64,000 bases of DNA from the NCBI GenBank assembly GCA_964230645.1, contig CAXRHT010000002.1, forward strand, positions 1,248,395 to 1,312,394, given 5' to 3'. Under the pieces are notes generated by a model that saw only the letters and a list, made by a program, of their open reading frames with translations, did not search any database and was not told the DNA's origin. Source of the DNA: Bdellovibrionales bacterium (GTDB lineage: Bacteria; Bdellovibrionota; Bdellovibrionia; Bdellovibrionales; JAGQZY01). The position numbers were made by a program, and so were the translations under genes. Shown in pieces: positions 9,192 through 61,182 of this stretch. The number at the start of each line of letters is the position of its first letter. Position 1 is the stretch's first letter.

Positions 9192-10226
9192 TTAGGCTTT
9201 TTTAGGTTTGCTATGAATAGCGAACTTTTCAAACTCTCCGTACTCATGCAACTTGTTATAAAGGGTCTTAATGGTAATTCCCAGTGCATTAGCTGCTTGA
9301 GTTTTGTTTCCTTCGAAATAGTTCAGCGCTTTAATGATGTGGCGCTTTTCTAGCTCATAAAGAGTCATTGAAGGATCGTACTCGTCCATGGAAATTCTGT
9401 TTTCAGGATTTACGATGGAGTTTGGTAGATCACTGGCAAGAATGACTTCGCCATCAGCAAGAATTTGTAACCTTTCACAAAGGTTTTGCAACTCACGAAT
9501 ATTACCTGGCCAATCATATTTCATTATGATGGACATAGCTTCTTCACTCATTTTGCGACCACGATTGAGAATACGGCTGGTGTTCTTAGATAAGAAGTGC
9601 TCCACAAGTAAGGGAATATCTTCTTTTCTTCTTCTTAGGGGCGGTGAGTGAACTGTGATGGTATTGATTCGATAATAAAGGTCTTCTCTGAATGTTCCCT
9701 TCATCACTTCAGCATCTAACTCCCGGTTAGTCGCCGAGATTAAGCGAATATCGACTTTAATGGGCTCTTTTCCACCCACTCGGTAAACTTCACCTTCTTG
9801 GATAAAACGAAGAAGCTTGGCCTGCATACCAGGACTTAGTTCTCCAATTTCATCAAGAAAAAGGGTTCCTCCGGAGGCCATTTCGGCCAGACCGATTTTT
9901 TTAGAGTAAGCACCTGTAAAGGCTCCTTTCTCATGTCCAAATAGTTCACTTTCTAGAAGAGTTTCTCTGAGGGCTCCACAGTTGATTGCCACAAAGGGCT
10001 TGTCTCGACGCTGACTTTTAGAGTGAATGGCATGGGCTAAAAGCTCTTTTCCGGTTCCGCTTTCACCTAAAACAAGGACGGAAGCATTACTCGGGGCCAC
10101 CCGGTCAACCATCCTCATGACCTGTTTCATCAGGTCCGATTTGTGAATAACTTTATTTCCCGCTAAAATGGGATTCGAGGCGCCACCAGTTATTTGCTGA
10201 CCGCCTGGAAAAGTTGAATTTGACAT
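9192..10226 (-). CDS. Sigma-54-dependent transcriptional activator (AAA+ plus Fis-type HTH, no receiver/sensor domain)
   Basis: GESGTGKE Walker A, GAFTGA loop (EKGAFTGA), C-terminal [26 protein letters not shown] 10226 follows GAGGTGG, so I prefer it to GTG 10235. Confidence 0.9.
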
Positions 10227-35668: not shown

Positions 35669-37135
35669 TTACTGTTGCATTACCGCTTGCACGTTAAGTT
35701 TTCCGTTGGAAACGGCTTTTCCATTCAATGCGTTAATGGGAGTGGCTGAGTTTAACACAGCGTCTTTTAGCTCTCTCCAGTCCGCATTTGGATACTTAGA
35801 AAGATAAAGAGCAGCAGCTCCGGAAACGTGAGGAGCGGCCATAGAGGTTCCGTCCCAAGTGGCAGTGATCAGTCCAGGAATATCAATGACTGTGTCTTGA
35901 TAAACATTGTCTGGAACAGTTGAGAAAACAGCCACACCAGGAGCTCCGATATCAACGGTTTGTCTACCCCAGTTGGAGAAAGATCCCAATTGGTCACTGG
36001 AATCAAGAGCCGCCACACTGATGATGTTCTCTTGCGGATAAGAAGCGGGGTAAGCCGGCTTAGCATCCGTATCGTTATCATAACCAACACCTTGATGTCC
36101 GTTACCAGCAGCCGCTACGAAAAGAACGCCGGCGTCTCTGGCATATTCAATGGCATCTTGAAGAGCTTGACTGGCTTGTTGGTCTCCACCATCACCTTCG
36201 CTTCCCCAAGAGTTCGAAAGAATTTGAGCCCCGTTATCAACAGCGTAACGAATGGAACCGATCGCACCATCAATGGAACCTTGACCATCTTCTGTTAAAA
36301 AGCGCATCGCCATAACTTTTACGTTTGGAGCCACACCTGAAATTCCTTTTCCGTTGTCCCCTGTGGCGGCTACGTTTCCAGCACAGTGAGTTCCGTGTCC
36401 AGGGTTTCCACCAAGAAGAAGTTGGATTCCTGTTTTATGAAGGTCATAAGGTTTGTTGTCGTCTGTGGCAAAGTCCCAACCAACAACGTCATCAACGTAA
36501 CCGTTTCCATCATCGTCAATTCCGTTTGTGGCTAGAGAGTTTCCATTGGCATCAACACCCATTTCCCCTGGGTTTCTCCACATATTGTCGACAAGGTCTT
36601 CGTGAGTGTAATCAACACCAGTATCGATCACAGCAACAACCACTTGATCATTTCCTTTTGTTCCAGAGTTATCCCAAGCTCCTTGAACATTGTTGTCAGC
36701 CATTCCCCACTGTTTGTTAAAAAGTGGATCACTTCCTGAACCACCCACTGGCTCGAGTGGAATCGCAGGATTATCTTCCCCACGCTCGGTCTGAACTTTT
36801 CCTTCAGCGATTTGTTTATCAAGCTCAGCTTTTACCATTTCACGAAGAATGGGATCTTGGACTTCAATGTTTGTTTGAAGTTTTACAATCCAGTTTCTTT
36901 CAATGGCCACAACATCCGAGTGAGCTTTAAGCTGCTCGGCCTCTTGATCTGAGATATCTAATTTGACCCAGTTTTTGAGATGAAGATCTTTCATCGCCAC
37001 ACCGGAACGACCCATTTCAGCCGTAAATTCGTTCATACTTCTTTGGTCTTTTAATTTTACAAGCCAGCCATTGGAGTCAGCACCGTAGGCGCTCATTGAG
37101 GCTAGTAGCACTACAATTATAGACAAGAATTTCAT
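35669..37135 (-). CDS. Secreted subtilisin-like serine protease (S8) with I9-type propeptide
   Basis: Signal peptide. Catalytic triad contexts VAVIDTGVDYTHEDL (Asp), HGTHCAGNVAA (His) and GTSMAAPHVSGAAAL (Ser). Confidence 0.92.
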   Translation of the reverse strand: MKFLSIIVVLLASMSAYGADSNGWLVKLKDQRSMNEFTAEMGRSGVAMKDLHLKNWVKLDISDQEAEQLKAHSDVVAIERNWIVKLQTNIEVQDPILREMVKAELDKQIAEGKVQTERGEDNPAIPLEPVGGSGSDPLFNKQWGMADNNVQGAWDNSGTKGNDQVVVAVIDTGVDYTHEDLVDNMWRNPGEMGVDANGNSLATNGIDDDGNGYVDDVVGWDFATDDNKPYDLHKTGIQLLLGGNPGHGTHCAGNVAATGDNGKGISGVAPNVKVMAMRFLTEDGQGSIDGAIGSIRYAVDNGAQILSNSWGSEGDGGDQQASQALQDAIEYARDAGVLFVAAAGNGHQGVGYDNDTDAKPAYPASYPQENIISVAALDSSDQLGSFSNWGRQTVDIGAPGVAVFSTVPDNVYQDTVIDIPGLITATWDGTSMAAPHVSGAAALYLSKYPNADWRELKDAVLNSATPINALNGKAVSNGKLNVQAVMQQ

Positions 37136-37354
37136 AGTTCCCCCTAAAAGAATTTTGTTTGTCGTCGAGTATTTGAACCCAGAAAAAAGAACTTTTCTGC
37201 GCCCTTACCGACTGAAGTCCCAACGAGAATTAAGTCTAAGGAGGCTGCGGAGAGTCTATCAATCAAATGAGACGGAACTAGCCCCAGGTCGGAGGCTATT
37301 CTAGACTATCGTCTTAGCTAATGAGTGATTATTATTATTTTAGATAGGTGAAGC

Positions 37355-38104
37355 TTAAAGTTTAGGCACTCTTTTTTGGATAAAATCGTTGAGAAAATCG
37401 TTCTGATCATCAAACTCAACGGCCACTCTTTCGTAATTGGTCTCTTTGCGAATGTTGACCACCCGGCCTTTAACCTGAACAGCTCCGTGTTCATTATTAC
37501 TATTCACAATAATGTTCACCTTGTGATCAAGACCAATATCGGTCGTACCATCGGTCACAAGCCCTAAACCCTGACAAGATAAACTCCAGGTCACTCCACG
37601 ATAAAGCTCCGCTCGCGAGCTTAAAAAGACCTCGTTGGTGTAGGGAATTCTTGGATGTCTTCTGCGGGAGATGACATTTTTAATAGGCTCATTATTAATA
37701 AGTGCTTCAAGTGCCCCTTCATTAAAAGGGTGGGCTTTGGCAAGCTCAAGCCAGGCTTCAAAACTTGAGTGCCTGATGAGATTATCCAAATGCAACCTTT
37801 TCTGCTGATAAAACTCCAGCATCTGTATCAATGAAAAAGGGCCGAAACTTCTTGAGCCATCTTTGACATACCAGTGATTAAATAGTGAATCATAGGAATA
37901 ACCATTGGAGGCTAACATAAGCTTGCCAACTAAAAATTGCGAAAAGTCTTGAAAGTCTAAAAGAGGGACCCAGATTTTTTCACCGGGTAGACTGGCTTTA
38001 GCAACGAAAGGAATCGCTCCTGACGATAGCTGAGATAAAACGTCTAAATAAGATTGATCACTATGAAGCGACCGACCCACCTGAATATCGCATTTCTTTT
38101 CCAA
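37355..38104 (-). CDS. GYF_2-domain / PilZ-domain protein (putative c-di-GMP effector)
   Basis: WYVKDGSRSFGPFSLIQMLEFYQQ (GYF_2-like) sits mid-protein. The C-terminal part has RRRHPR plus SLSCQG, a PilZ RxxxR / (D/N)xSxxG-like pair. TTG start, so the 5' end is uncertain. Confidence 0.65.
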   Translation of the reverse strand: MEKKCDIQVGRSLHSDQSYLDVLSQLSSGAIPFVAKASLPGEKIWVPLLDFQDFSQFLVGKLMLASNGYSYDSLFNHWYVKDGSRSFGPFSLIQMLEFYQQKRLHLDNLIRHSSFEAWLELAKAHPFNEGALEALINNEPIKNVISRRRHPRIPYTNEVFLSSRAELYRGVTWSLSCQGLGLVTDGTTDIGLDHKVNIIVNSNNEHGAVQVKGRVVNIRKETNYERVAVEFDDQNDFLNDFIQKRVPKL

Positions 38105-38258
38105 AATATAATCCCACTTTTAATGCAGCAATAACCCCAGAATTTATTATACGGGTGACTTATAGAAATTGGGAAGACCATTCCCTCTTTGAGACAGTCT
38201 AAAGAAGAGGAATTTATAACCCCTTGAAATGGTTTGGAGATTCCTGTAAGAATCTTGT

Positions 38259-38963
38259 ATGAATTCTAGCCAATTATCCGAGCGCTTAAAAAATCCAAAT
38301 AACGATGATTTCTTTGTCTTAGATATCGACTCAACTTTGGTCACTACATTTCAGCGCAACCAAGCCATTCTTGATCAATTCATTGAGGATTACTGTGAAA
38401 CACACCCCAGTGAGTGCGAGAAACTTAGGAAAGCATCTTGTCAGCTTGGTGATTATGGCATCAATACGGCTCTTAAAAGAATAGGGTTTAAAAGCGACAA
38501 TGCAGACTTTGACGATTTTCTCCATAACTATTGGAGAGAACGCTTTTTTACCAATGACTATTTACACTCTGATCAACCCACTGAGGGAGCGATCGACTGG
38601 ACCAATAGTCTTTTAGAAAAAGAGATCAATTTTGTGTTTCTAACAGCAAGACACTTTAAAAATATGTGGCCAGGCACTCTGTCTTCCCTCAAGGCACTCA
38701 ACTTTCCCATCCACGAACAGAATCTGATATTAAAAGAGAACCTTAGTGTCGACGATGAAATTTATAAAACCCAAACTCTTCAACGCCTAAAAGAAGAGAA
38801 TAAAGACAAAACCATTTGGTTCATCGATAACGAGCCTGTGGTGCTGCACCAAATTAAGAAAGATCACCCTGAGGTTCAATTGGTCTGGTTTGACTCCTGC
38901 CATTCTGGTAGAATGCAAGCGCCCCCGAACACGCCTTCAATAAAGAGTTTTAACTTTTTATAG
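38259..38963 (+). CDS. HAD-superfamily hydrolase-like protein
   Basis: FFVLDIDSTLV (DxDxT nucleophile motif) near the N-terminus. Confidence 0.6.
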   Translation: MNSSQLSERLKNPNNDDFFVLDIDSTLVTTFQRNQAILDQFIEDYCETHPSECEKLRKASCQLGDYGINTALKRIGFKSDNADFDDFLHNYWRERFFTNDYLHSDQPTEGAIDWTNSLLEKEINFVFLTARHFKNMWPGTLSSLKALNFPIHEQNLILKENLSVDDEIYKTQTLQRLKEENKDKTIWFIDNEPVVLHQIKKDHPEVQLVWFDSCHSGRMQAPPNTPSIKSFNFL

Positions 38964-39111
38964 GTTTGAACCTACCTTAGTCCTGCATTGAAACACTTGA
39001 AAAATGAGCCCGCCCTAAAGCTCTTTTCTATTTGATTTTCTTGAAGTTTTTCCGAAAAAAACTAAAATAGTATATAGGTGCTAAAAAGAATTTTACCCTT
39101 GTAGGTTTAAG

Positions 39112-39969
39112 ATGAACTCAACCATTCGAAAATGGATTCTCCTTGCTGATGGCGACGATAAATTTCGTAAGTCCATTAGTGATCTTTTGGTCTCTCATTT
39201 TGGCGATCAAATTAAAATCATTCAGACAGACAATGGTGGCACGGCTATTTCCAAAATTAAAAATCAGGTGTTTCACCTCATTATTTCTTCGCTCGATCTA
39301 CCCAAAAAAAGTGGTAAAGAATTAGTTCAGGCTGTGAGACAAAATCAGTTCAATCAGACCTCTCCCATTGTCCTTCTCTCAGAAGGGACCGAGGAGGAGA
39401 ATGCAAAGATTGAAAAATCATTTGAATTTGTAAACTGTGTCACTAAGCCTGTTGACCCTTATGAGTTTGCCAAAGTAATTCGAAACATTTTTAGTATTGG
39501 CTCAACAGAGAAAATGATTTCCGCGAGTATTTTCTCAAGCCTCCTTGATTCGTCACTCGGGTTTTTGAAAGAGGCACTGAAAAGAGATGATTTCAAAGTC
39601 GGAGAGATGAAATTTAAGAAAAAAGGCGAAGAGCTTACAGCGGACCAAGCGGCAATCATTACCGTTCATATTGGAAAGGTCTCCAACACCTTCTCGGTTT
39701 TGTGTAGTGCTGAAACCTTGGAAGCTCTCATGCAAGGCTCAGAAAAAATTTCTGGAAAATCTTTGAATGTAATTTGCAAGTCGCTTGGTTACGTCATTTT
39801 AAAGCACGTCTTAACCGAATGTGGGATTATCAATCATAATGAAGTCAAAACCAAAGACATCACTCAAGACCCCATGCTTTTAACGGAAAAACAGGGAATT
39901 ATTGTTCCCATCTCTGCTAACAATATCAATTACAAAATATTTGCCACCACAAAAGGTGATGAGATTTAA
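39112..39969 (+). CDS. Response regulator: receiver domain plus uncharacterised C-terminal domain (possibly CheX/CheC-like)
   Basis: REC signatures: LLADGDD, phospho-acceptor context IISSLDLP, IVLLS, VTKP. The ~150-aa C-terminal domain is unassigned. Confidence 0.75.
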   Translation: MNSTIRKWILLADGDDKFRKSISDLLVSHFGDQIKIIQTDNGGTAISKIKNQVFHLIISSLDLPKKSGKELVQAVRQNQFNQTSPIVLLSEGTEEENAKIEKSFEFVNCVTKPVDPYEFAKVIRNIFSIGSTEKMISASIFSSLLDSSLGFLKEALKRDDFKVGEMKFKKKGEELTADQAAIITVHIGKVSNTFSVLCSAETLEALMQGSEKISGKSLNVICKSLGYVILKHVLTECGIINHNEVKTKDITQDPMLLTEKQGIIVPISANNINYKIFATTKGDEI

Positions 39970-40520
39970 ATCTTTTTTTGAGTCTCAAGATAGTGTAGCG
40001 CCTTTGAAATCGAGGCAATCATAATACTGTGATCGACATCCCCGTTTAGTAAATGCTCTTTGAGTTTATCAAGAGAGCAGAAATAGAGACTTAAATCTTC
40101 AAACTCATCGAGATTCTGTTCTTGTACTTTCTCGGAGTCAAAAGCAATAAAGGTGTGCATGCGGTTACTCTGTAGAGCAGGATTAGGGAAATGACTGCCG
40201 ATTGAGACAATATTTTTAGAATTAAACCCTGTCTCTTCGAGCATCTCTCTTCTGGCTCCCTCTAAAAAACTTTCTTGAAGGGAGGGATCCATTGAGCCTC
40301 CTGGTACTTCGAGGTGCTCCTTTTTAGAGGCATGACGGTACTGCTTCACCAAAATAGCTTCTCCGTCTTTTGTAATCGGCAGTATGTTGACCCAATCAGG
40401 GAAATCCATCACATAATAGCGTGGCATCACTCGACCGTCGGGAAGCTCGCACTTTTCAGATTTGAGTGTAAAAAGGCCTGATGAGAACAGTTTTTTTGTG
40501 GAGAGCACTTTCCAGGTCAT
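39966..40520 (-). CDS. NUDIX hydrolase (ADP-ribose pyrophosphatase-like)
   Basis: Nudix box GGSMDPSLQESFLEGARREMLEETGF. ATG 40520 has AAAGGA 5 nt upstream. 40526 is an alternative start. Confidence 0.85.
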   Translation of the reverse strand: MTWKVLSTKKLFSSGLFTLKSEKCELPDGRVMPRYYVMDFPDWVNILPITKDGEAILVKQYRHASKKEHLEVPGGSMDPSLQESFLEGARREMLEETGFNSKNIVSIGSHFPNPALQSNRMHTFIAFDSEKVQEQNLDEFEDLSLYFCSLDKLKEHLLNGDVDHSIMIASISKALHYLETQKKI

Positions 40521-40629
40521 AATCATCCTTTTTCAATTGATTAAGAAACCTCAATTTTTTACAGGAAGACTCTAATGTCAATGGATGTTTTCTAAGAATA
40601 GAGGCAATGGATTTTAATTCAATGAGTGA

Positions 40630-43600
40630 TTAGTCAAACGCAGTAACCCAAGCAAAATAAGCGTGAGTGCCCATGACCATAATTGTGTAGACCGTATGCT
40701 CACCGGCTGTGGTCGCACCGTGTCCGCTTGGTAAGTGAACTGTTAAAGATGTGGAGCCCGCATCACTATAGGCATTAAATGCACAGGTGCCGGATGTGGT
40801 TCCTTGCACTGCGAACGAATACGTTCCACCATCTTTTAAATTATGAAGATCAAAGGTTTGGCAGTTTTCACTTGTGTACTGTAAATTTCCATCATCAAAA
40901 TCGATGGTGGTCACAGCTGCACCATTAGAAATAGAGGCTGAGTTGCGAATGGCACCATTGACTTCAAGGGCGGATTGAGGACTCGCTGTACCTATTCCAA
41001 CGTTTCCAGCAAAATAGTTCGTATCGGAGGCTCCGACTTGGTAAACTCCATACTGATTGGTCCCTGACAAATCATCAATATAAAGTCCATAAGCATTTGT
41101 TAAAGTGCCGGAGTTTGAGTTTTTTGCACGAAAGCCGTAGGCATCAGTAACTGTTCCGCCGTTGACCTTGATTTCACTCAAAACACCAGTGTAGTCACCC
41201 ACTGTTCCAGCTAAATTTTCCATCTCGTTATAGCTACCTATACCCTGATTGAGACTTGTAGCCCAGTTCGAATTAATGTTGTAACTGCTAATTTGTTGGT
41301 CCTGGGCATTTGGAGAGTCACCACGGATAAGATTTCTAATTCCGATAATTTTACCTGAATGAGGATCACCATTTTTATACATCTCGTTGTTGATGTGCGC
41401 GTAGTCACCAGAGGCATCGAAGGGATTACTCTCGACACGGACCAAAGCTCCACCAAGATTTATCATATTTGCACTACCTACTAAGAAACTACCATCACTT
41501 CTTGCTGTTGCCACGGTCGAACCGTTTGCTTCTAAATTGAAATTGTAGTTATCATTTGTACCGATTGTTATTGCTGCACCATTTGAATTTCCACCATCAG
41601 CAATATCGCCAGAACCGCCACTGATTCCACTGGAGAGATCAAGACAGTTGGAGTTATTTTCATCACAAATTTCAGACGCATTGATCGACCCGGTTCCAAC
41701 ATCTAGAGCGACGGCCGGAGCTGTTGTACCAATCCCTACCCTTCCGTTTGGTGCCAAGGTGACGTAGTCCTGATAGGTACTGCCATCGAAATAATTAAAC
41801 ATTAACTTATCGGCATCAGCGCCGACGGTCGATCCGTTGCGGTAGTTAATGCTCCACTGATTTGCGTTGACCGTATTAGCCAGATTAAAATACGAATAGT
41901 TGTAGGCATCTAAAGAGCCTCCTGTTGAAGTGACCACGCCCGCGCCTGTGTCGCCATAAGCTTCCACCGCTGCCGCTGAAAAATCACCTGACACCTCTAG
42001 CATTTTACTAGGACTTCCCGTGCCAATTCCAACATTTCCAGAGGCTGTCACTCTTAATCTCTCACTACCCGCTGTGGTTAAGGCAATACTGTTGGCCACG
42101 GGGTCATGGATACCGGTATCGTTATCACCAGTAAAACTATAATCAAGATCCGCTCCGGCACCATAGCCGGCGTCAATTCTATTGAAAAAACTAAAGGAAC
42201 CCGTATTCCAACGGAGAACCTGTCCTCCGTTTAACGCAAATCCCAGATCGTCTTCCGCAAATCGAAAAAAACCCATATCCTGATCACTATTAAATGTAAG
42301 GGCAGGACTTGCTCCTGTACCATCTGCGAGTAAGAGACTATCAGTCATTGGCACCGATCCGTCAGCGAGGAAGTCTCCCCCTGAACCGCCGCCAGATGTA
42401 TCCACCCAAGTGGAGCCATCATAAAACTTCAGTTTATTAGAATCAGCACTATCAACAGCTATATCCCCTGCAGCAGGAGATCCTGGAAGAGTCGTTGGTG
42501 TAATTCGTGCGGGACCATCTACATGTAGCAGGCGTGCTGGAGCTGTTGTTCCGATTCCTACATTACCCGAGCTATCGATACGAACCCTTTCATCGTAAGC
42601 TGTGGCCCCTGTCTGCTGCCCAATAACAATGTCAGGTGTTCTTCCAGAAGAGTTTGCAATCGCTCCTATGTAAGCCTCTTGTTGGTCAGACGCCAAGTTT
42701 CTAGCTTGTAAACTTAATCCTGCCATTGCAGAGTCTAAATTGTCGGTATTTTGCACATGAGGTCCTACCATCACCGGACGATAATTACTTGATGAAGAAG
42801 GGGCATAGACTCCCCAGGTTCCTGGATAGGAAACCAACAAAGGATTTAAAACGCTTATTCCACCACTATGGGCGTACATCTGCATCGTACCAGCCGCACT
42901 TAATCCCAATGAATCTCCGAAAGGTCTAAAAATACCTGTGTCTTCATCACCTTCAAAGGCGACACCTGGAAAAGAGGCCGAACCGAAGTCAGCCTCAAGG
43001 GCACCCGTCATTGGCACACTACCATCAGCTAGGAAGTCACCAGAACCCGAACTCCACCCTGCTGAAATATCTTGGCAATTGGCTCCTGTTTCATCACAGA
43101 TTTGTTCGGCTCTTATACTACCAGCCACATCCAACAGAGAGCCTGGAGCTGTGGTTCCGATTCCAACATTACCACTATCATCGATTCTGAATCTTTCCTG
43201 ATAAGACGTGGCTCCGGTTTTTTGCCCGAGAACTATTGCCGGTGAGCTTCCAGTAGACTCTGCAACAACTCCTAAGTAGGCACTCTGATTTGTTGAACCA
43301 CTGTTGGTAACCTGAAGTGAAACCCCTCCATAGGAATTATCTAGTGAGTTTGTATTATAGAAAGTCGCTGTACCTCCATCAGGGCCATATAAACTACCAC
43401 TTGAAGGAGAGTAGGTACTTGAACTCCAAATTCCTGAAAAGAGGGGACGGAATAGCGTAATAGCGGATCCGTTAAGAGCCATCACTCCATTGCCTCCCAC
43501 GCTCAGAGCCATTTCATCAGAACCCGATCGAGTGATGCCAGTATCCTCGTCACCATCGAATGTGATACCTGGTGAAGCTGAAGTTCCGTACACAGCCTCA

Positions 43601-46600
43601 AGGGCTCCGGTCATGGGCACACTACCGTCAGCTAGGAAGTCACCAGAACCCGAACTCCACCCTGCTGAAATATCTTGGCAATTGGCTCCGGTTTCATCAC
43701 AGATTTGTTCGGCTCTTATAATCCCTGCCACATCTAACAGAGAGCCTGGAGCTGTGGTACCAATTCCGACATTTCCTGTCTGAGTAATTTCCATAATATG
43801 GTTGTTATTAGCGGCAATAGCTATGTCGGAATTCACCGACTCTAAATACAAATGGTCTCGGGCCCAAGGCACTCCGACCGCGTCGTTTCCGTAACCAACC
43901 CATCCAGCTACAGCTCCCAGTTCGTCTTGAAACTCTATTGTGTTGTAATTACTGTTTGATGTGGACTGAAGAACAACTGTGGTATCGGCGCTGACGATCT
44001 CAAGAGGCCAAGAAGGATTGTTCGTACCAATTCCCACAAAACCTGAGGAATTAATTCTCATGGCCTCAGATCCTCCAACGGAGAAACCAAGTGTATCAGC
44101 TCCGGCTCTATAAATTCCTGTGTCTTCATCACTATTAAATGTGTAACTGGGAAAACCTTCACTTGATCCAGAGTTCAATCTAAACGAGCCAGCATTGTTA
44201 TACTCGATACCTGTCTGATTAAAAGTCATACGCTGAACGCCGTTGACGCTAACACCCATATTATCAGGCGCTGCAGAAAAGAAACCAGTATTGCTGTCGT
44301 TCGCAAAAGAAATACTTGGGGCAGCCCCTGTGCCGTCACCAGCTAGTAAAGTGTCACCATCAGTGTATCCTGTACTTATACCAGCGGACAAATCGATACA
44401 GTTAGTATTGTTCTCATCACATATGGAGGCGGCATTTATTGTTCCTGTGTCGACATCTAACTCAACTCCAGGATTGAGAGTATTGATACCCACATGGCCG
44501 GTATCTTCTACAACCAATCTATGAGCATTGTTATCAATATCATAAACAGCAAACCAGTTATCGACACCATCATCCAAAACATCGATCTTAAAACCTTTTC
44601 CACTCGTTGCATTTGGAGTCAAAGCTAAGCTAGCTGTATTGTCTCCGCTTGGGCGATCTCCAATGACCACGGACTCGTTGACGGTGGGAGCCCTTTTCTC
44701 TCCACCGGCAAGAAGTTGGCCGGCAACATCTAATTTACCAGCAGGAGTTTGAGAGCCTATTCCGACTTGTCCTGTGGCATCGATTCGAACAGCTTCATTA
44801 CCACCGGTAGTAAAGGCCAATTGGTCGGCAGCACCAAGGAACATTCCTGTGTTGGCATCACTTGCAAATGAAACGGCAGGGTTTCCCTGGTTTCCATCGA
44901 TGGCATCAAATTGACCCGTCATTGCCACTGAGCCATCAGCCATAAAATCGCCAGAACCAGAACTCCAGCCCGTTGAAATATCTTGGCAATTGGCTCCAGA
45001 TTCATCACAAATTTGCTCTGCACGAATAATTCCTGCAACATCCAATTCAGAAGCTGGGCTCGTTGTACCAATTCCAACATTTCCAGTAGAACCAATCAAA
45101 GTCATCAATTCCGTGAGAGCACTGGATTGCCTAACATAAAAATGAATATCTCCTGAGGCACTATTGGCACCCCTCGTAGAAGCTAAACGGCCAGAGTCCA
45201 CACCACCACTTTCAAATAATATTCCGGAACCTCTGGAATCACCAGCGCTTGTGTTTGTAAGCTTAAGACTGTCACTGATCCCCGTAAAATTTCTGAATAT
45301 CTCAACTTTTTCATCGGGGGTTGTGGTACCTATACCAAGATTTCCGACACTATTGATACGCATTCGTTCACTACCACCATCAGTGCTGAAACTTATGGAT
45401 TCGCCGGTATCGGCATCAATATTAATTAAACTTCCATTCCAGCCGATTGCACCATAATAACCACCACCAAAATGACGGAAATTAATTCTATTAGCATTGC
45501 CTGAAGAGCCATTTCTTAGATTTAACTCAACTCCGTTGGTATCACTGGCTCCACCGTAGCCGAACATTTGAAAAACTTCGGAACCATTCATATCAAAACG
45601 AATATCATCATCATCGGGCCCTGCCTCTAACCGAATTCGTGTGTCACCATCAGTGTCTTGGAGGACTGATCCTGGAGAATTGCTACCTACTAAATCAATC
45701 CAGGCCCCACTTTCATACCCCTCAAGCTTGGAAGTAGTAGTATTATAACGAAGCATCCCGTTTTCACCGGTGCCAGGTCGCTCACCGGTTGTCCCCTGAG
45801 GAACGACAATCGCATCAGTACCTGATACATCGAGGATAGCGGCGGGATTTGTTGTCCCAATCCCCACATTGCCTGAGGTATCCACTGTAATCGCTGTTGA
45901 ACCATTGGTAAGTAGGCTCAAGTTTTGAGCGTTTGTGGTTCCAATTTCGAGATCTCCTGCAGGAGCATTTCCACCGTCAATCACGTAACCATCATCAGCT
46001 ATAATCGCTTCGACTTCTGCGTTGGAAAGAACGAAGTTTGAGCGAGTCATCTTCCTTAAAGCACCAACGGAGGCATCATAGATAAGAATTTCATCACCTG
46101 CGGCGACTGAGGCCTCGGCGGTTTCGTTAGTAATATCTACGTTGACCCCTGTTCCATCCACTGTGATCGCATCTCCACCTTGCACGGCTAGAGTGCGATC
46201 GACGGAAAGATCACCACCACCGGTTAATCCATTACCCGCTGTGATTGATCTTGAATCAGAAACTTTGTCAGCCTCTAGCTCCACAAGGGCTGCTTGTAAA
46301 GTTGTTGCAGTTAATGGTGTGGTTCCTACAGGAATCACTGTCGGATCAAAAGCACTTTCATCAAGTGTTAAGATGACATTGTCGGCATCAGAAGAAACGG
46401 CAATTTTGCCATTGGCAGAACCGACAGATTTGAATTCAAGATTTAATCCGTTCTTAGCTTTAAAAACACCTTCACCCGTTCCAACATTAGCCCCATCGTT
46501 GACTTCACCACCTGCAGCGGTTCCAAAGGCTGTCCAAGTGGAGCCATCACAAAATGAAACGGCTCCGCCTACGTATTTTAATGTTCCCTCTTTTGTACCA

Positions 46601-49600
46601 TTACAGAGAGCCGCATCGTTACCAATTTGCACCCCACCAGCAACTTGTAATTGCGAGGTGGGAGTTGTGGTTCCGATACCAACAAGACCGCTGTTTTGAA
46701 TAGTCATTCGGTTAGAGGCATTGGTACCAAAATGTAGATCTGTGTTTGCGAGATTCCAAACATAGGCGTCTCCTCCCCCAGCTACACTCGCAATACCTAA
46801 AGCTAAAGTGCCGGCATCTGACGCCGTACCTATTGTCGCTTCAGCATTAACCCCTGGATCTAAATTGATAACACCAACACCCGTGGACGCATTGTCTGAA
46901 TCAACAATCTCCAGTTTACCACTAGGATTAGAAGTTCCAATTCCCACATTTCCTGAGGAGTCGACGGTCATTACTGTCGAATTATTTGTTAAGAAAGTTA
47001 AGTCTTCGGCGTTTGTTGTACCAATATCTAACGAGCCAGTTGGTGCATTTCCACCATCGATAACATAACCGTCATCAGCAATAATCGCTTCCACTTCTGC
47101 ATTTGAAAGTACAAAGTTCGAACGAGTCATTTTTCTTAAGGCACCAGCGGAGGCATCGTAAATTAAAACTTCATCACCTGCCGCAACTGACGCTTCTGCG
47201 GTTTCGTTGGTTATATCGACATTAACGCCTGATCCGTCCACTGTGATAGCATTGCCACCAACTACTTCGATATCATCCGCATTTACATTAATACCGTTTC
47301 CAGCACCGACGGCTAAAGTTCGGTCCGTACTTAAATCGCCGCCACCAACAAGACCTCCACCAGAGACGACGGCTCTTGAGTCAGAAACTTTATCGGCTTC
47401 AAGTTCTACAAGTGCTGCCTGTAAAGTCGTTGCGGTTAACGGTGTTGTCCCTACAGGAATCACTGTTGGATCAAAAGCATTTTCATCAATTGTTAAGGTG
47501 ACATTATCAGTATCAGAGGAAACAGCTATCTTTGTATTAGCTGAGCCAATCGATTTGAATTCAAGATTCAGACCGTTTTTCGATTTAAAAACTCCCTCAC
47601 CGGTTCCAACATTGGCTCCATCATTGACCTCTCCACCAGCAGCGGTTCCAAAAGCTTCCCAGGTTGTACCATCACAAAAAGAAACAGATCCTGCGTCGTA
47701 CTTTAAAGTTCCGGCTTTTGTTCCATCGCATAGGGCTACATCATCACCAATTTGTACACCACCAGTTACCTGTAACTGAGCTGTTGGAGTTGATGTGCCG
47801 ATACCAACGTTTCCATCCTCTCGAATTATCATTCTTTGAGTGTTGGAGCCGCCACTTGCAGTTGAAAATGAAATTCGGCCATCATTATCCGGGTCAGCCC
47901 CTGTCGAAATATCTATACCGGCTATTCGAGTTCCATCATTGTTTGCTCTTAAAGAAAAAACACCCGCACCAGAAAATGTCCTGTCTGCATCTACCAGCAA
48001 TTTTACATCATTATTACCAGTGTTTGTTAAAGCTATATTCGAGCTAGTTGCACTGTATATTTGGAGTTTAGAAGTCGGTGCCGTCGTTCCAATACCGACA
48101 TTCCCATTGTCATCAACAATAAAACTGGTTGCTCCGTTATCTTGTACTTGAAAGTTATTAGTGCCAGTCAGGTTCCACACAACATCCGTGGAGTCCACTG
48201 TTATCGCAGAACCATTGTTGTAGGCATCGTCTAAACTTTGAGTTTCCGCAGTTAAGTATCCTGCGGCCGCATGATCTCCCCAAGCAAAGGCCTGATCCCA
48301 ATCTGCCGAGTTATCGGTGATACTGCTATAAGTTCCAGGTGCTGTGCGAACTAAAATACCATTTCCAGACCACACAGTATCAAGCTCAGTTCCAGTGATG
48401 TTTTGTAAAAATCCTTCATTGGAAGCGAAGGTTCCAACCTCACTTTGACTCAGTACAAAATTTGACCTTGTGATTTCTTTTAAATTCCCAGCGTCTTCAC
48501 TGTCTCTAATTAAAAGACTATCGGCAGCAACGGCAGAAGTTAATTTGTCAGCCGTTCCAGCGACATCAACATTAACACCTGTACCATCCACACTTATTCC
48601 GTTTCCAGCTCTGACTTCAATGTCGTCAGCATTCACTGTAATACCGTTGCCAGCTCCTATATCAAAAGTGCGATCAGAGCTTAGGTCACCACCACCAGTT
48701 AAACCTTGACCTGCTGTTACACTTCTTGATTCTGCAGCCACACTTGTCCAAGAGAGAACTCCGGCACCACTTGTTTGTAGCACTTGCCCTGCTCCACCGT
48801 CGTCATCCGGGAGAGTCCACACAAAGGAAGACACTGCATTTACAGTGTTCGGCGCCTGGAAACCAACGTACTTTGTTCCCGTATCCTGAAATCTTAATTC
48901 TGTAGTCACACCACCATTAAGATCCATCACCAGATTTCCGGTCATAGAGTCGCCACTTTTAGCGACCTTTTCAGCACTTAATTCTTCAATCGCTCCCTGA
49001 ACTTCTGTGGCTGTATCCACATCACCACCATAGGTGTTATCAAAAGTGATCAGGTCAGCATCGTAGTCGCCGGCTGTAGCTATAACATTGCCTGTGCGAC
49101 CGAAAACTTGAGTGACTCCCGCGTTGACATCCTGCCAGGAGAGCACTCCACTTCCATCGGTTTGTAAGTATTGTCCAGGGTCACCATCGTTATCCGGTAG
49201 AATTAAATTAACCGGTGCCGCAAGGGCTGCTGGTGATTTTAAAGAGACATAATCAGAACCGTTTCCGGTAGCCTCAGCAAGTTGTAACTCACTTTCGTTT
49301 TCTAAGTTAATATTACCAGCAGAATTAATCCCGTTGGTAACACCAATCCCACCCGAGACGGTAAGGTTGTTGCCTATACTAGCATCTTGGCCCGCACTTA
49401 AATTATTGGTGGCAGAAATATTGTTGTTAGCTGAAATATCATTCGCATTGGTGATGTCTTGATTTCCCATGTTGATGGAACCAGTCATGGTTCCACCCCC
49501 CAATGGGAGTTTATTCACATCGTTTATCACTTGCGAGTTCCACTGCGTGCCATCCCAGGTCAGGACTTCGCCATTCTGACCGGCACCAAGAGCACCGAGG

Positions 49601-50373
49601 TCCGCGGTATCGACCTGTTGTCCACCGATGTAGCTGCGAGCATAGCCGACGTTCACAGCGTCGGAATCTGTGGCTGGATTAGGATCCGCGAGATTAACTA
49701 TTTTTTGGTTGTTGTTGTCGACGTCTGCTGTTGGAGCGCCCGCTGTAAAACTCGTGCTTGTTCCATCAAGAAGAGCTTGTAGCTCGTTCCAGTTGCTATC
49801 GCTAAAGACAAACTCAAGATTTGTTTGGTCTAGATTAAATCCAGTCCCACTATTGATTCTTAGAATTTCAGGAGCACTAAGACCACCAATGGTCGAAGCA
49901 CTGGTGGCGTAGGGAACGCTGACAACATTGTGATCTTGAGCCACTGTCACAGGACCTGAACCATCATCAAAGGTCACTCGCAGTTTTCTGCCATCAGTGG
50001 AATCCGCCGTGTAGCTGGGACCCATCACACAATCCGTGGGAGTGACCGTACCGATAGCATTATCGAGAGCGTCGGAAAGGCTGGTCAGGTCTTCGTAAGA
50101 TCCATCACCAGGCTTGGAGCCCTCACCGACTATCAGACTGAAAATTCCATTAGAATTAGTCATGTTAAGAGTGTGAGATTCTTTATAAAGCACACAAAGC
50201 TCTGGCTCTGGGGAAAGAACTTCAATGGTAAATTGTACGGTGCTCGCCTCAAGGGCTTGACCGTTGGGTTTGATGATTTGACCTTGATAGGTAAATTTTG
50301 CAGGCCCTGCGAGAGCTTGAGCGGCTGCGAAAAAGGTCAAAAATAGAATCAATAAATATCTTTTAACGTGCAC
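40630..50373 (-). CDS. Giant secreted fibre protein (3247 aa) built from tail-fibre-like modules
   Basis: GTG start. Sec signal MHVKRYLLILFLTFFAAAQALA|G. 16 copies of G(N)VGIGTxxPxxxLxV, 7 copies of FxxDxDTG(I/M/F)(F/Y), 5 disulfide-loop motifs ICDExxxNCxDxS, and (G)GTMTG / GDSMTG, LTGGGDLSxDRT and ERPxxxxxGMLRYN...W motifs. G/T/S/N/D-rich. All opposite-strand ORFs are shadows. Confidence 0.9.
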   Translation of the reverse strand: MHVKRYLLILFLTFFAAAQALAGPAKFTYQGQIIKPNGQALEASTVQFTIEVLSPEPELCVLYKESHTLNMTNSNGIFSLIVGEGSKPGDGSYEDLTSLSDALDNAIGTVTPTDCVMGPSYTADSTDGRKLRVTFDDGSGPVTVAQDHNVVSVPYATSASTIGGLSAPEILRINSGTGFNLDQTNLEFVFSDSNWNELQALLDGTSTSFTAGAPTADVDNNNQKIVNLADPNPATDSDAVNVGYARSYIGGQQVDTADLGALGAGQNGEVLTWDGTQWNSQVINDVNKLPLGGGTMTGSINMGNQDITNANDISANNNISATNNLSAGQDASIGNNLTVSGGIGVTNGINSAGNINLENESELQLAEATGNGSDYVSLKSPAALAAPVNLILPDNDGDPGQYLQTDGSGVLSWQDVNAGVTQVFGRTGNVIATAGDYDADLITFDNTYGGDVDTATEVQGAIEELSAEKVAKSGDSMTGNLVMDLNGGVTTELRFQDTGTKYVGFQAPNTVNAVSSFVWTLPDDDGGAGQVLQTSGAGVLSWTSVAAESRSVTAGQGLTGGGDLSSDRTFDIGAGNGITVNADDIEVRAGNGISVDGTGVNVDVAGTADKLTSAVAADSLLIRDSEDAGNLKEITRSNFVLSQSEVGTFASNEGFLQNITGTELDTVWSGNGILVRTAPGTYSSITDNSADWDQAFAWGDHAAAGYLTAETQSLDDAYNNGSAITVDSTDVVWNLTGTNNFQVQDNGATSFIVDDNGNVGIGTTAPTSKLQIYSATSSNIALTNTGNNDVKLLVDADRTFSGAGVFSLRANNDGTRIAGIDISTGADPDNDGRISFSTASGGSNTQRMIIREDGNVGIGTSTPTAQLQVTGGVQIGDDVALCDGTKAGTLKYDAGSVSFCDGTTWEAFGTAAGGEVNDGANVGTGEGVFKSKNGLNLEFKSIGSANTKIAVSSDTDNVTLTIDENAFDPTVIPVGTTPLTATTLQAALVELEADKVSDSRAVVSGGGLVGGGDLSTDRTLAVGAGNGINVNADDIEVVGGNAITVDGSGVNVDITNETAEASVAAGDEVLIYDASAGALRKMTRSNFVLSNAEVEAIIADDGYVIDGGNAPTGSLDIGTTNAEDLTFLTNNSTVMTVDSSGNVGIGTSNPSGKLEIVDSDNASTGVGVINLDPGVNAEATIGTASDAGTLALGIASVAGGGDAYVWNLANTDLHFGTNASNRMTIQNSGLVGIGTTTPTSQLQVAGGVQIGNDAALCNGTKEGTLKYVGGAVSFCDGSTWTAFGTAAGGEVNDGANVGTGEGVFKAKNGLNLEFKSVGSANGKIAVSSDADNVILTLDESAFDPTVIPVGTTPLTATTLQAALVELEADKVSDSRSITAGNGLTGGGDLSVDRTLAVQGGDAITVDGTGVNVDITNETAEASVAAGDEILIYDASVGALRKMTRSNFVLSNAEVEAIIADDGYVIDGGNAPAGDLEIGTTNAQNLSLLTNGSTAITVDTSGNVGIGTTNPAAILDVSGTDAIVVPQGTTGERPGTGENGMLRYNTTTSKLEGYESGAWIDLVGSNSPGSVLQDTDGDTRIRLEAGPDDDDIRFDMNGSEVFQMFGYGGASDTNGVELNLRNGSSGNANRINFRHFGGGYYGAIGWNGSLINIDADTGESISFSTDGGSERMRINSVGNLGIGTTTPDEKVEIFRNFTGISDSLKLTNTSAGDSRGSGILFESGGVDSGRLASTRGANSASGDIHFYVRQSSALTELMTLIGSTGNVGIGTTSPASELDVAGIIRAEQICDESGANCQDISTGWSSGSGDFMADGSVAMTGQFDAIDGNQGNPAVSFASDANTGMFLGAADQLAFTTGGNEAVRIDATGQVGIGSQTPAGKLDVAGQLLAGGEKRAPTVNESVVIGDRPSGDNTASLALTPNATSGKGFKIDVLDDGVDNWFAVYDIDNNAHRLVVEDTGHVGINTLNPGVELDVDTGTINAASICDENNTNCIDLSAGISTGYTDGDTLLAGDGTGAAPSISFANDSNTGFFSAAPDNMGVSVNGVQRMTFNQTGIEYNNAGSFRLNSGSSEGFPSYTFNSDEDTGIYRAGADTLGFSVGGSEAMRINSSGFVGIGTNNPSWPLEIVSADTTVVLQSTSNSNYNTIEFQDELGAVAGWVGYGNDAVGVPWARDHLYLESVNSDIAIAANNNHIMEITQTGNVGIGTTAPGSLLDVAGIIRAEQICDETGANCQDISAGWSSGSGDFLADGSVPMTGALEAVYGTSASPGITFDGDEDTGITRSGSDEMALSVGGNGVMALNGSAITLFRPLFSGIWSSSTYSPSSGSLYGPDGGTATFYNTNSLDNSYGGVSLQVTNSGSTNQSAYLGVVAESTGSSPAIVLGQKTGATSYQERFRIDDSGNVGIGTTAPGSLLDVAGSIRAEQICDETGANCQDISAGWSSGSGDFLADGSVPMTGALEADFGSASFPGVAFEGDEDTGIFRPFGDSLGLSAAGTMQMYAHSGGISVLNPLLVSYPGTWGVYAPSSSSNYRPVMVGPHVQNTDNLDSAMAGLSLQARNLASDQQEAYIGAIANSSGRTPDIVIGQQTGATAYDERVRIDSSGNVGIGTTAPARLLHVDGPARITPTTLPGSPAAGDIAVDSADSNKLKFYDGSTWVDTSGGGSGGDFLADGSVPMTDSLLLADGTGASPALTFNSDQDMGFFRFAEDDLGFALNGGQVLRWNTGSFSFFNRIDAGYGAGADLDYSFTGDNDTGIHDPVANSIALTTAGSERLRVTASGNVGIGTGSPSKMLEVSGDFSAAAVEAYGDTGAGVVTSTGGSLDAYNYSYFNLANTVNANQWSINYRNGSTVGADADKLMFNYFDGSTYQDYVTLAPNGRVGIGTTAPAVALDVGTGSINASEICDENNSNCLDLSSGISGGSGDIADGGNSNGAAITIGTNDNYNFNLEANGSTVATARSDGSFLVGSANMINLGGALVRVESNPFDASGDYAHINNEMYKNGDPHSGKIIGIRNLIRGDSPNAQDQQISSYNINSNWATSLNQGIGSYNEMENLAGTVGDYTGVLSEIKVNGGTVTDAYGFRAKNSNSGTLTNAYGLYIDDLSGTNQYGVYQVGASDTNYFAGNVGIGTASPQSALEVNGAIRNSASISNGAAVTTIDFDDGNLQYTSENCQTFDLHNLKDGGTYSFAVQGTTSGTCAFNAYSDAGSTSLTVHLPSGHGATTAGEHTVYTIMVMGTHAYFAWVTAFD
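42991..43776 (-). repeat. Two adjacent 603-bp (201-aa) units whose first 183 bp are near-identical
   Basis: 42991-43173 versus 43594-43776: 13 mismatches by hand count and 60/61 aa identical (GNVGIGTTAPGSLLDVAG(I/S)IRAEQICDETGANCQDISAGWSSGSGDFLADGSVPMTGALEA). The remaining ~140 aa of each unit are far more diverged. Confidence 0.85.
44908..45084 (-). repeat. Third, more diverged copy of the 183-bp cassette
   Basis: Residues 1764-1824: GNVGIGTTSPASELDVAGIIRAEQICDESGANCQDISTGWSSGSGDFMADGSVAMTGQFDA. Confidence 0.8.
45844..47814 (-). repeat. Large internal duplication (period 1125 bp / 375 aa)
   Basis: Residues 854-1150 versus 1229-1510 are collinear. Protein is mostly identical apart from a 15-aa indel, while the DNA carries many synonymous differences. 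A partial third copy lies at 48436-48723 (res 551-646). Confidence 0.85.
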
Positions 50374-50379
50374 AAATAG

Positions 50380-50406
50380 TTATCGGACTAAGTGCTTAAG
50401 AGTTTA
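50380..50406 (-). promoter_or_regulatory. Sigma-28 (FliA)-type promoter of the giant fibre gene
   Basis: Minus strand reads TAAA-N15-TCCGATAA (equivalently TAAACTCT-N11-TCCGATAA). It is followed by CTATTT and then the GTG start codon. Confidence 0.5.
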
Positions 50407-50670
50407 GGATTTTTGTGCATTTACTCGATAATTTATAGGAATTTTTGTGCTTTTTTGTCTCTCCATGAGCCGGAGTCTCAATACTTTCCGCTAGCTGTCT
50501 TTTTATGATACAGACTTTTCAAGGCTGTCAGAAAATAGACAAGCTTAGTAAAATTCTGAAGAGCTGAGGTCGAGGTATATATAGACTAAAGTTAGCTCCC
50601 CCTACATTTGATTCCAGTAGTGAGACAATTCTTGTTTGCTAATCACTGTAATAAATAATAGAAAAAGTCC

Positions 50671-51330
50671 ATGGCATTGACTCTTATTTCAGTTCCTATT
50701 GGAAATCTAGGGGATATCACCCTACGAGCTTTAGAAAGCCTCAAATCGGCTGACCTTTATATTGGTGAGGAACGTAAACCTATGTTTCGCCTATTAAAAG
50801 AATTAGGCGTGGCCACTCCTAAAAACTTTGAACTTCTCAATGAGCATTCCGAAAAAGAAGACATCAAAAGACTGGCGCAACTCTGCAAGAATCAAAATGT
50901 GGTTCTACTCACCGACTGTGGCACGCCTGGCTTTAGTGATCCGGGGGCTGAACTCGTCAGTGAATGTTATAAACAAGAAATTTTAGTGACCGCCAACCCT
51001 GGTGCTTCAGCACTCACAACATTCTTAAGTCTTAGTGGCGTTCGATTAGAAAAATTTAATTACTATGGGTTTTTACCAAGAGAAAAAAACGAAAGGCAAA
51101 AAGCCATCCAGAGCCTTTGCAAAGTCAAAACGCCCACAATTATCATGGACACAGCCTACCGCCTAAAAAAAACTCTCACCCAATTTGATCAGGTGAATTC
51201 AAACTCAGAATTCGTGCTTGGTATGGATTTAACCAAGCCCAGTGAAAAAGTATTGAGTGGGAAAATGAGCCAGATTTTAAGGGATTATGATGGTGAAAAA
51301 AGAGAGTTTTTGTTGTTGATTCTTCCCTAG
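50671..51330 (+). CDS. rsmI: 16S rRNA 2'-O-methyltransferase RsmI-like (tetrapyrrole-methylase fold, short form)
   Basis: LISVPIGNLGDITLRALESLKSADLYIGEERK N-terminus and ...LLTDCGTPGFSDPG. Confidence 0.7.
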   Translation: MALTLISVPIGNLGDITLRALESLKSADLYIGEERKPMFRLLKELGVATPKNFELLNEHSEKEDIKRLAQLCKNQNVVLLTDCGTPGFSDPGAELVSECYKQEILVTANPGASALTTFLSLSGVRLEKFNYYGFLPREKNERQKAIQSLCKVKTPTIIMDTAYRLKKTLTQFDQVNSNSEFVLGMDLTKPSEKVLSGKMSQILRDYDGEKREFLLLILP

Positions 51331-61176: not shown

Positions 61177-61182
61177 GTATAT

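Follow-up and report, generated by a model that had tools for sequence, protein, structure and literature searches.

A silent-site identity step at two shaft joints of a giant mosaic adhesive trimer fiber gene in a Bdellovibrionales bacterium is consistent with intragenic gene conversion

The mosaic adhesive trimer (MAT) family of Bdellovibrio fibers was described by Caulton et al. (2024, Nat Microbiol; PMC10769870). According to that study, a conserved domain of ~130 amino acids follows the signal peptide of these proteins, their shafts are intertwined trimeric β-helices with capping loops that carry a consensus motif, and their C termini are formed by an S74 chaperone-protease or by some other tip. 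The history of the family is mosaic, as illustrated by Bd2133 and Bd1334, which have a common N terminus and exchanged C termini. Related patterns are known from two other systems. In the gp38 adhesins of T-even phages, conserved glycine-rich motifs flank hypervariable segments (Trojet et al. 2011, PMC3157838; Tetart et al. 1998, cited therein), and intragenic homogenization, or concerted evolution, of tandem repeats is well known in fibrous and surface proteins, for example in spider silk genes (PMC3933166). Here, we report on a giant MAT fiber gene in a 64,000-nucleotide stretch of the genome of a Bdellovibrionales bacterium (contig CAXRHT010000002.1; the whole stretch is referred to below as the window). 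Two joints between shaft domains of this fiber are nearly identical in DNA, while the shaft domains beside them have diverged to saturation at silent sites.

The two joints, cassettes A and B, are each 61 residues long, and each opens a repeat unit that continues with a shaft domain of ~140 residues. They are offset by 201 amino acids (603 nucleotides). Our recount reproduced exactly the figures of the first-pass annotation of the window, with 60 of 61 residues identical and 13 mismatches in 183 nucleotides; 12 of the mismatches are synonymous third-position changes, and the other is I2218S. That annotation had also described the rest of the two units as only distantly similar, which agrees with an alignment that extends throughout and has 63 of 138 residues identical (40 to 44% by BLASTP). 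Tandem Repeats Finder detected no array at the locus because the whole units are too diverged. The third, more diverged copy that had been noted earlier was also borne out. This copy, cassette C, is identical to A and B at 51 and 50 of 61 residues, respectively, with 46 and 45 nucleotide differences. A fourth GDFLADGSVPMT motif occurs at residue 2666, after the capping loop of residue 2603.

Taken alone, the 60/61 protein identity is weak evidence for an identity step, because the module is nearly as conserved between unrelated fibers. A representative-protein search with a 49-amino-acid query, through which the giant relatives were found, returned 207 representative proteins among 1.84 billion. 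Many of these are fibers of 2000 to 4200 amino acids with 2 to 15 copies of the module, and copies in different proteins reach 0.9 to 1.0 identity over 40 amino acids. The multicopy fibers that we found number 36.

The silent sites carry the evidence. By the Nei-Gojobori method, the cassettes have 12 synonymous differences at 45.8 sites, which gives a synonymous divergence (dS) of 0.32 and a nonsynonymous divergence (dN) of 0.007, whereas in the rest of the two units the proportion of differing synonymous sites (pS) is 0.74, i.e., saturated. Synonymous divergence is clearly not uniform across the cassettes and their flanks, and the earlier description of the step as gene-conversion-like fits these values. 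We also counted how often identical residues with degenerate codons use the same codon, taking the expectation from gene-wide codon usage. Cassettes A and B use the same codon at 46 of 58 such residues versus 20.7 expected (binomial P = 1.4e-11), and the rest of the unit does so at 21 of 59 versus 21.2 expected (Fisher P = 2e-6 for cassette versus rest). The longest exact run between A and B spans 62 nucleotides; in a GENECONV-type test with 10,000 permutations of the mismatches, the longest run had a mean of 10 and a maximum of 26 nucleotides (P ≤ 1e-4).

Other copies of such joints served as controls. Within the same gene, the first-pass annotation had pointed to two distant relatives at ~44.4 and ~41.7 kb, and these were found as type II Cys-loop junctions at residues ~1984 and ~2902. 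They are identical at 29 of 42 residues (69%) and use the same codon at 9 of 29 versus 11.3 expected. In four other multicopy fiber genes (L103 to L106), most cassette pairs are 60 to 87% identical as protein, with codons at chance. Given that these controls are conserved as protein with chance-level codons, the step between A and B cannot be put down to protein-level selection. Two further fiber genes showed a weak same-codon excess (P = 0.004 and P = 0.014). Cassette C uses the same codon as A at 27 of 49 residues versus 18 expected (P = 0.008), its dS is 1.2 to 1.5, and a 24-nucleotide exact run over the residues GANCQDIS, GGAGCCAATTGCCAAGATATTTCA, is common to all three cassettes; C may have taken part in older exchanges. 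The common ancestor of cassettes A and B is far more recent than that of the sequence surrounding them.

The mismatches are unevenly distributed within the cassette, with 1 in a 93-nucleotide core and 12 in the 90 nucleotides of its edges (Fisher P = 0.0011). Since the first 30 nucleotides of cassette B match the capping loop at residue 2603 at 28 positions and cassette A at 26, the homogenized tract proper probably begins ~19 nucleotides into the cassette. The homology of the two units does not extend 5' of the capping loop in A, which is preceded by a different module type of ~89 amino acids. At the 3' end, the sequence stays alignable while its nucleotide identity drops from ~93% to ~55%, and the tract truly ends there. 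With a domain of a giant S74-type fiber in another metagenome-assembled genome (MAG; contig L001, protein P0001), shaft domain A shares 61% identity, compared with 40 to 44% with shaft domain B, so the two shafts split before those module lineages separated. The ends of both shaft domains and the capping loops that follow them are alignable at 74% nucleotide identity.

We propose that the step arose through recombinational homogenization, namely, intragenic gene conversion between joints A and B after an old tandem duplication, and we give this reading a probability of about 0.72. Units A and B would be old tandem duplicates of a joint plus a shaft, with shaft domains that have since diverged to synonymous saturation. 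Much later, nonreciprocal recombination between direct repeats 603 bp apart, through misaligned and presumably RecA-dependent pairing, would have copied ~165 to 183 bp from one joint to the other. The tract would have been limited to the joint because only there had purifying selection preserved enough DNA similarity for heteroduplex formation. The core with its single mismatch suggests either a second, shorter, and more recent event or patchy mismatch repair.

Coordinates of the giant fiber gene and of its parts, in window positions (all on the minus strand)
Feature	Position	Strand	Remark
Giant fiber gene, 3247 aa, GTG start	40630..50373	-	Open reading frame (ORF) call; MAT family, non-S74 type
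MAT N-terminal domain, residues 11-168, after signal-peptide-like start	49870..50343	-	NF053851
Cassette A, residues 2200-2260: capping loop GNVGIGTTAP, strand LLDVAG, Cys hairpin IRAEQICDETGANCQDIS, hinge AGWSSGSG, motif DFLADGSVPMTGALEA	43594..43776	-	
Core of homogenized tract in A, 93 nt, 1 mismatch to B	43628..43720	-	62-nt exact run 43628..43689
Shaft domain A, diverged β-helix, residues 2261-2400	43174..43593	-	Aligns to Bd1334 β-helix (8oml, 8on4)
Cassette B, residues 2401-2461, 60/61 aa and 170/183 nt identical to A	42991..43173	-	
Core of homogenized tract in B	43025..43117	-	62-nt exact run 43025..43086
Shaft domain B, diverged β-helix, residues 2462-2602	42568..42990	-	Silent sites versus domain A saturated
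Next capping loop, residue 2603 onward, non-Cys 'RITPTTLPGSPAAGD...' knuckle instead of hairpin	42463..42567	-	
Cassette C, residues 1764-1824, older copy of same cassette type	44902..45084	-	
Type II Cys-loop junction ICDENNTNCIDLS, residues 1959-2000	44374..44499	-	Internal negative control
Type II Cys-loop junction ICDENNSNCLDLS, residues 2877-2918	41620..41745	-	Internal negative control
C-terminal tip domain, residues 3123-3247, 125 aa, two Cys, in place of S74 chaperone	40633..41007	-	No S74 match

The cassette is the joint between two β-helix shaft domains. It reads, in order, GNVGIGTTAP, GSLLDVAG, IIRAEQICDETGANCQDIS, AGWSSGSG, and DFLADGSVPMTGALEA, parts that can be assigned, with the help of a structural model, to the capping loop of the preceding domain (GNVGIGTxxP), a Cys-Cys hairpin with a predicted disulfide, a Gly/Ser hinge, and a GDFLADGSVPMTG strand that would open the next domain. 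The model was made with AlphaFold2 for a monomer of residues 2186 to 2475 and has a mean predicted local distance difference test score (pLDDT) of 69 and a predicted template modeling score (pTM) of 0.39. The capping loop and the hairpin are its best-defined parts (pLDDT 83 to 94), and the GDF/GDFLADGSVPMTG part is poor (pLDDT 54 to 57). Short strands at model positions 38 to 40 and 47 to 49 bear C2225 and C2232, and a disulfide between these two residues would staple the hairpin. Foldseek searches with the model returned MAT fibers as all of the top matches (probability 0.97 to 1.00), followed by phage fibers; the low template modeling scores reflect the extended, monomeric state of the model. 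The ~140-residue remainder of each unit aligns to the β-helix domain of Bd1334 (8oml and 8on4).

These results bear on two structural suggestions made in the first-pass annotation. The capping-loop motif and the modeled hairpin with C2225 and C2232 agree with its idea of a structural collar or disulfide-loop element. The segments between the cassettes had been called knob-like; that description did not hold, as both their sequence and their fold match the β-helix shaft domains of solved MAT fibers. Of the cassette, only the GDFLADGSVPMTG part was also found in viral contigs, at 63 to 83% identity (IMG/VR contigs L088 to L097).

Several lines of evidence place the whole protein in the MAT family. 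The NCBIfam model NF053851 (Bdello_MAT_N, "mosaic adhesive trimer family chimeric fiber protein") matches its N-terminal domain with 130.4 bits against a cutoff of 60; this is the conserved β-rich domain of ~130 amino acids that directly follows the signal peptide in MAT proteins. A β-helix shaft with the capping-loop consensus is indicated by 16 motifs of the form G.[VLI]G[IV][GN][TS], which align with the capping-loop regions of 8ond, 8oml, and 8ojn, and by the PDB alignments and Foldseek matches. A PDB sequence search returned only Bdellovibrio MAT fibers (Bd2133, Bd1334, and Bd3182) and one phage tail fiber, with entries including 8ond, 8oml, 8ojn, and 8on5, through a recurring element of the form "...ERMRIxxSGNVGIGTxxPxxxLxV." PHROGs tail-fiber families (9942 and 18345) match many stretches of the protein, and a Pfam scan of its 3247 residues found no domain, including no Peptidase_S74 (PF13884). 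At the C terminus, where other members carry an S74 chaperone-protease or an alternative tip, the giant fiber has a tip that places it in the non-S74 subgroup. Judged by its sequence, the giant ORF is a very long non-S74 MAT fiber, in which three of the three defining features that can be tested at this level are present.

By analogy with the family, the protein would act in a trimer, and we regard it as a putative prey-binding surface fiber of a presumably predatory, Bdellovibrio-like bacterium that is known from sequence alone. The 125-residue tip, which has two conserved Cys residues, is 48% identical to the C terminus of the long fiber P0374 (1581 amino acids), and no convincing solved homologue of it was found (best E value, 0.03 to 0.14). 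It appears to be a recurrent, uncharacterized non-S74 tip.

The neighbors of the giant gene are chromosomal housekeeping genes (clpB, the nuo operon, and purH). Its closest homologues come from Bdellovibrionota MAGs, and the PurH protein encoded in the window has MAG relatives at 97% and 81% identity. Over positions 42001 to 50000, the G+C content is 0.45 to 0.48, compared with 0.39 to 0.44 around it, and the GC skew on the plus strand is strongly negative. The raised G+C content of the fiber gene could reflect either a composition rich in Gly, Ala, and Thr or a foreign origin.

Recombination-like patterns are not confined to cassettes A and B. The giant gene holds an older internal duplication of residues 854 to 1140 and 1229 to 1500 (positions 46954 to 47814 and 45874 to 46689, minus strand), the copies of which are 85% identical in amino acids and 73% in nucleotides, differ by a 15-amino-acid indel, and use the same codon at 70 of 126 residues versus 47 expected. 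This duplication begins exactly at a capping loop and is preceded by unrelated modules. Two ORFs on the opposite strand lie inside the duplicated blocks (46142 to 46699, 185 amino acids, and 47207 to 47779, 190 amino acids, both on the plus strand) and are probably spurious products of repetitive, skewed composition. In the related MAG, contig L001 (188 to 11965) encodes a fiber of at least 3925 amino acids with an S74 domain at its end and with 1.1-kb internal repeats at 82 to 93% nucleotide identity, between which lie diverged blocks. A scaffold gap of 100 N's (9824 to 9923) directly follows GNVGIGT in this contig, at the position equivalent to the cassette, which suggests that the same joint broke the L001 assembly.

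A further case was found in fiber P0261, encoded on an unrelated metagenome contig (L105, 3001 to 7308), in which the MAT N-terminal domain is absent. At its residues 681 and 1097, a tract of ~270 nucleotides is 94% identical in DNA, includes an 82-nucleotide exact run that starts at the Cys loop, and is embedded in duplicates that are 66 to 72% identical; the same codon is used at 39 of 54 residues versus 17.5 expected. P0261 is an independent instance of the same pattern, and DNA-level homogenization centered on the joint is sporadic and recurrent but not the rule. Related joints also occur in four tandem copies each on contigs L006 (3289 to 5952) and L032 (10001 to 14878). In this pair, a Pseudobdellovibrionaceae MAG has a non-Cys version with the knuckle RITPTxLPGSPAAGD, and a Patescibacteria MAG has four identical joints of 42 amino acids at a spacing of 1584 nucleotides.

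A second MAT gene lies 11 kb from the giant gene in divergent orientation (61177 to 64000, plus strand). It runs off the end of the window and encodes at least 941 amino acids, with an NF053851 score of 144 bits, and its N-terminal ~300 codons are 67% identical in nucleotides to those of the giant gene. A 32-nucleotide exact run over PAKFTYQGQIIKPNGQ (50264 to 50295 in the giant gene) occurs in both, with the same codon at 12 of 17 identical residues.

Independent short-read data contain the repeat. Contig L086, assembled from another run (Logan SRR28144588), is 100% identical to positions 36581 to 43054 of the window and ends 30 nucleotides into the 62-nucleotide run of cassette B, so the repeat is real in other data, and the copy-specific 3' differences of B are reproduced there. 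The start points of contigs L083 and L084, at 50266 and 50264, lie at the edge of the 32-nucleotide run that the giant gene has in common with the second MAT gene. We infer that both contig breaks reflect a k = 31 assembly graph at exact repeats.

Searches for other versions of the gene gave little for comparison. A strain at 97 to 98.7% identity (GCA_041253095.1) is represented by fragmented contigs only, and those reached via the neighboring genes are short and end at the fiber gene. In a scan of genome contigs with the cassette peptide, in which the ubiquitous GNVGIGTT pattern dominated the matches, no orthologue was among the matches listed, and the best relatives listed were 63% identical. 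A metagenome scan for DNA encoding CDETGANCQDISAGW gave 0 matches, a looser pattern gave 2 unrelated single-copy loci, and an exact look-up of the 3247-residue protein with two alternative starts retrieved no record. In a congeneric MAG (GCA_041254115.1; PurH, 81% identical), the 9.7-kb fiber gene is absent at the syntenic locus. Both flanks are syntenic there (L100, 10268 to 11697, versus window positions 39966 to 51330) at 72 to 74% nucleotide identity, with 200 bp between the TP_methylase and NUDIX genes. The giant fiber is thus a presence/absence difference between close species.

We infer a recombination mechanism from the identity step, and several points weigh against our proposal of gene conversion between the joints. 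The gene is known from one genome only. The ends of the tract are placed by 13 differences only. A dS of 0.32 means that the event was not very recent, and ongoing homogenization is thus not demonstrated. The structural view of the joint comes from a monomer model of a trimeric fiber, with the mean pLDDT of 69 and pTM of 0.39 given above. Last, a recent duplication of the whole unit followed by replacement of one shaft domain yields the same pattern. In that scenario, the 603-bp unit was duplicated fairly recently (dS, ~0.3), and a diverged fiber paralogue then donated a shaft domain to one copy, with the conserved joint and the next capping loop as the two homology arms. The known mosaicism of the family (the exchanged C termini of Bd2133 and Bd1334; PMC10769870) makes such a replacement plausible, as do the duplicated blocks of the giant gene that begin exactly at capping loops and the identity of domain A to a fiber domain of another organism (61%), which exceeds its identity to domain B. 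Possible donors exist, with the second MAT gene only 11 kb away, but no donor sequence was found, and the nested 93-nucleotide core would be left unexplained. Moreover, the first ~18 nucleotides of B group with the capping loop of residue 2603 (28/30) rather than with A (26/30), and the shaft-domain ends and next capping loops are alignable at 74% of nucleotides, all of which fits an old in-register tandem array mildly better than a recent duplication. We consider the replacement scenario possible but unlikely.

Two further accounts are extremely improbable. If purifying selection alone had kept a structurally constrained joint identical after an old duplication, without recombination, the high protein-level conservation of the module across unrelated fibers (the 207 representatives, at 0.9 to 1.0 identity) would be expected; the silent sites refute this account, however, with 46 of 58 codons the same in the cassette beside saturated flanks, and equally conserved copies elsewhere have chance-level codons. 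An assembly or polishing artifact, with reads of one copy used to correct the other, might be suspected since the assembly of giant repeat-rich fiber genes is difficult: the gene is in pieces in short-read assemblies of this organism, and the related MAG has its 100-N gap exactly at the equivalent position. Nevertheless, the 13 copy-specific differences persist, and the independent contig L086 reproduces the 3' part of cassette B exactly before it breaks within the 62-nucleotide run. It is also very unlikely, in our estimation, that the cassettes are maintained as in-frame recombination sites that delete, duplicate, or exchange 201-residue shaft modules and thereby vary the length or specificity of the fiber. 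The first-pass annotation had suggested such a substrate role, which is physically plausible, since the direct repeat is exact over 62 nucleotides, is spaced at 603 bp, and would keep any crossover in frame. In addition, conserved motifs and variable segments are similarly laid out where gp38 adhesins are swapped among T-even phages (PMC3157838), and the whole fiber gene is present or absent between congeners. On the other hand, no length variant was observed, with the window as the only spanning sequence; a dS of 0.32 indicates that exchanges between A and B are rare, and most multicopy fibers lack DNA homogenization of the module. A wider version of this idea, which we offer as a decidedly speculative one, is that the joints are portable in-frame recombination linkers that reshuffle, delete, and duplicate shaft and tip modules within and between the fiber genes of predators and of the many uncultured lineages in which similar giant fibers occur. 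If so, fiber length and prey specificity would vary at the population level, in a chromosomal counterpart of phage tail-fiber swapping, and the Cys-loop-centered tracts in two unrelated fiber genes would be its footprint.

We dismissed a diversity-generating retroelement, with no formal scan, since the shaft domains, at ~42% identity, show indels and every type of substitution rather than adenine-targeted changes. A role of the core at the nucleotide level, whether in an RNA structure or as a site on the opposite strand, seems unlikely given that codons are not conserved in other copies of the module.

Gene conversion between old tandem joints, our preferred reading, makes the locus a real but ordinary case of repeat evolution, i.e., textbook partial concerted evolution with no new mechanism. 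Its interest lies in the setting. MAT fibers are the proposed prey-recognition repertoire of Bdellovibrio, and the locus is a clean, quantified case of recombination inside such a gene, in which the conserved joint is the place where DNA similarity lasts long enough for exchanges. Exact repeats in the joints and in the common N terminus break short-read assemblies; giant fiber genes are therefore likely to be fragmented in or missing from MAGs, and their diversity is likely to be underestimated.

Compared with the solved MAT fibers of B. bacteriovorus (PMC10769870; 8ond, 8oml, 8ojn, and 8onf), the giant fiber likewise has a signal-peptide-like start, the conserved N-terminal domain, and a capping-loop β-helix shaft, as well as a non-S74 tip, phage-tail-fiber ancestry, and a mosaic history. 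It differs in being ~3 times longer (3247 amino acids versus 1031 for Bd2133) and in coming from an uncultured relative. A text search of that paper found no description of the Cys-hairpin joint or of its DNA-level homogenization; these are details within a known framework. Phage tail fibers with the GDFLADGSVPMTG motif (L088 to L097) match the 3' third of the cassette at 63 to 83% identity but are without its capping loop and Cys hairpin, and the giant fiber gene, unlike theirs, sits among chromosomal housekeeping genes. With the gp38 adhesins, the locus has in common short conserved motifs that alternate with diverged segments in a receptor-binding fiber protein and recombination at the conserved motifs. 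Exchange between phages swaps specificity loops in gp38, whereas the event proposed here would have taken place between two copies in one bacterial gene. Spider silk genes offer a parallel in process, with repeat copies within one gene that recombination keeps alike in DNA. In the giant fiber, only 183 bp of the 603-bp unit has been homogenized in this way, and the remainder has escaped and become saturated.

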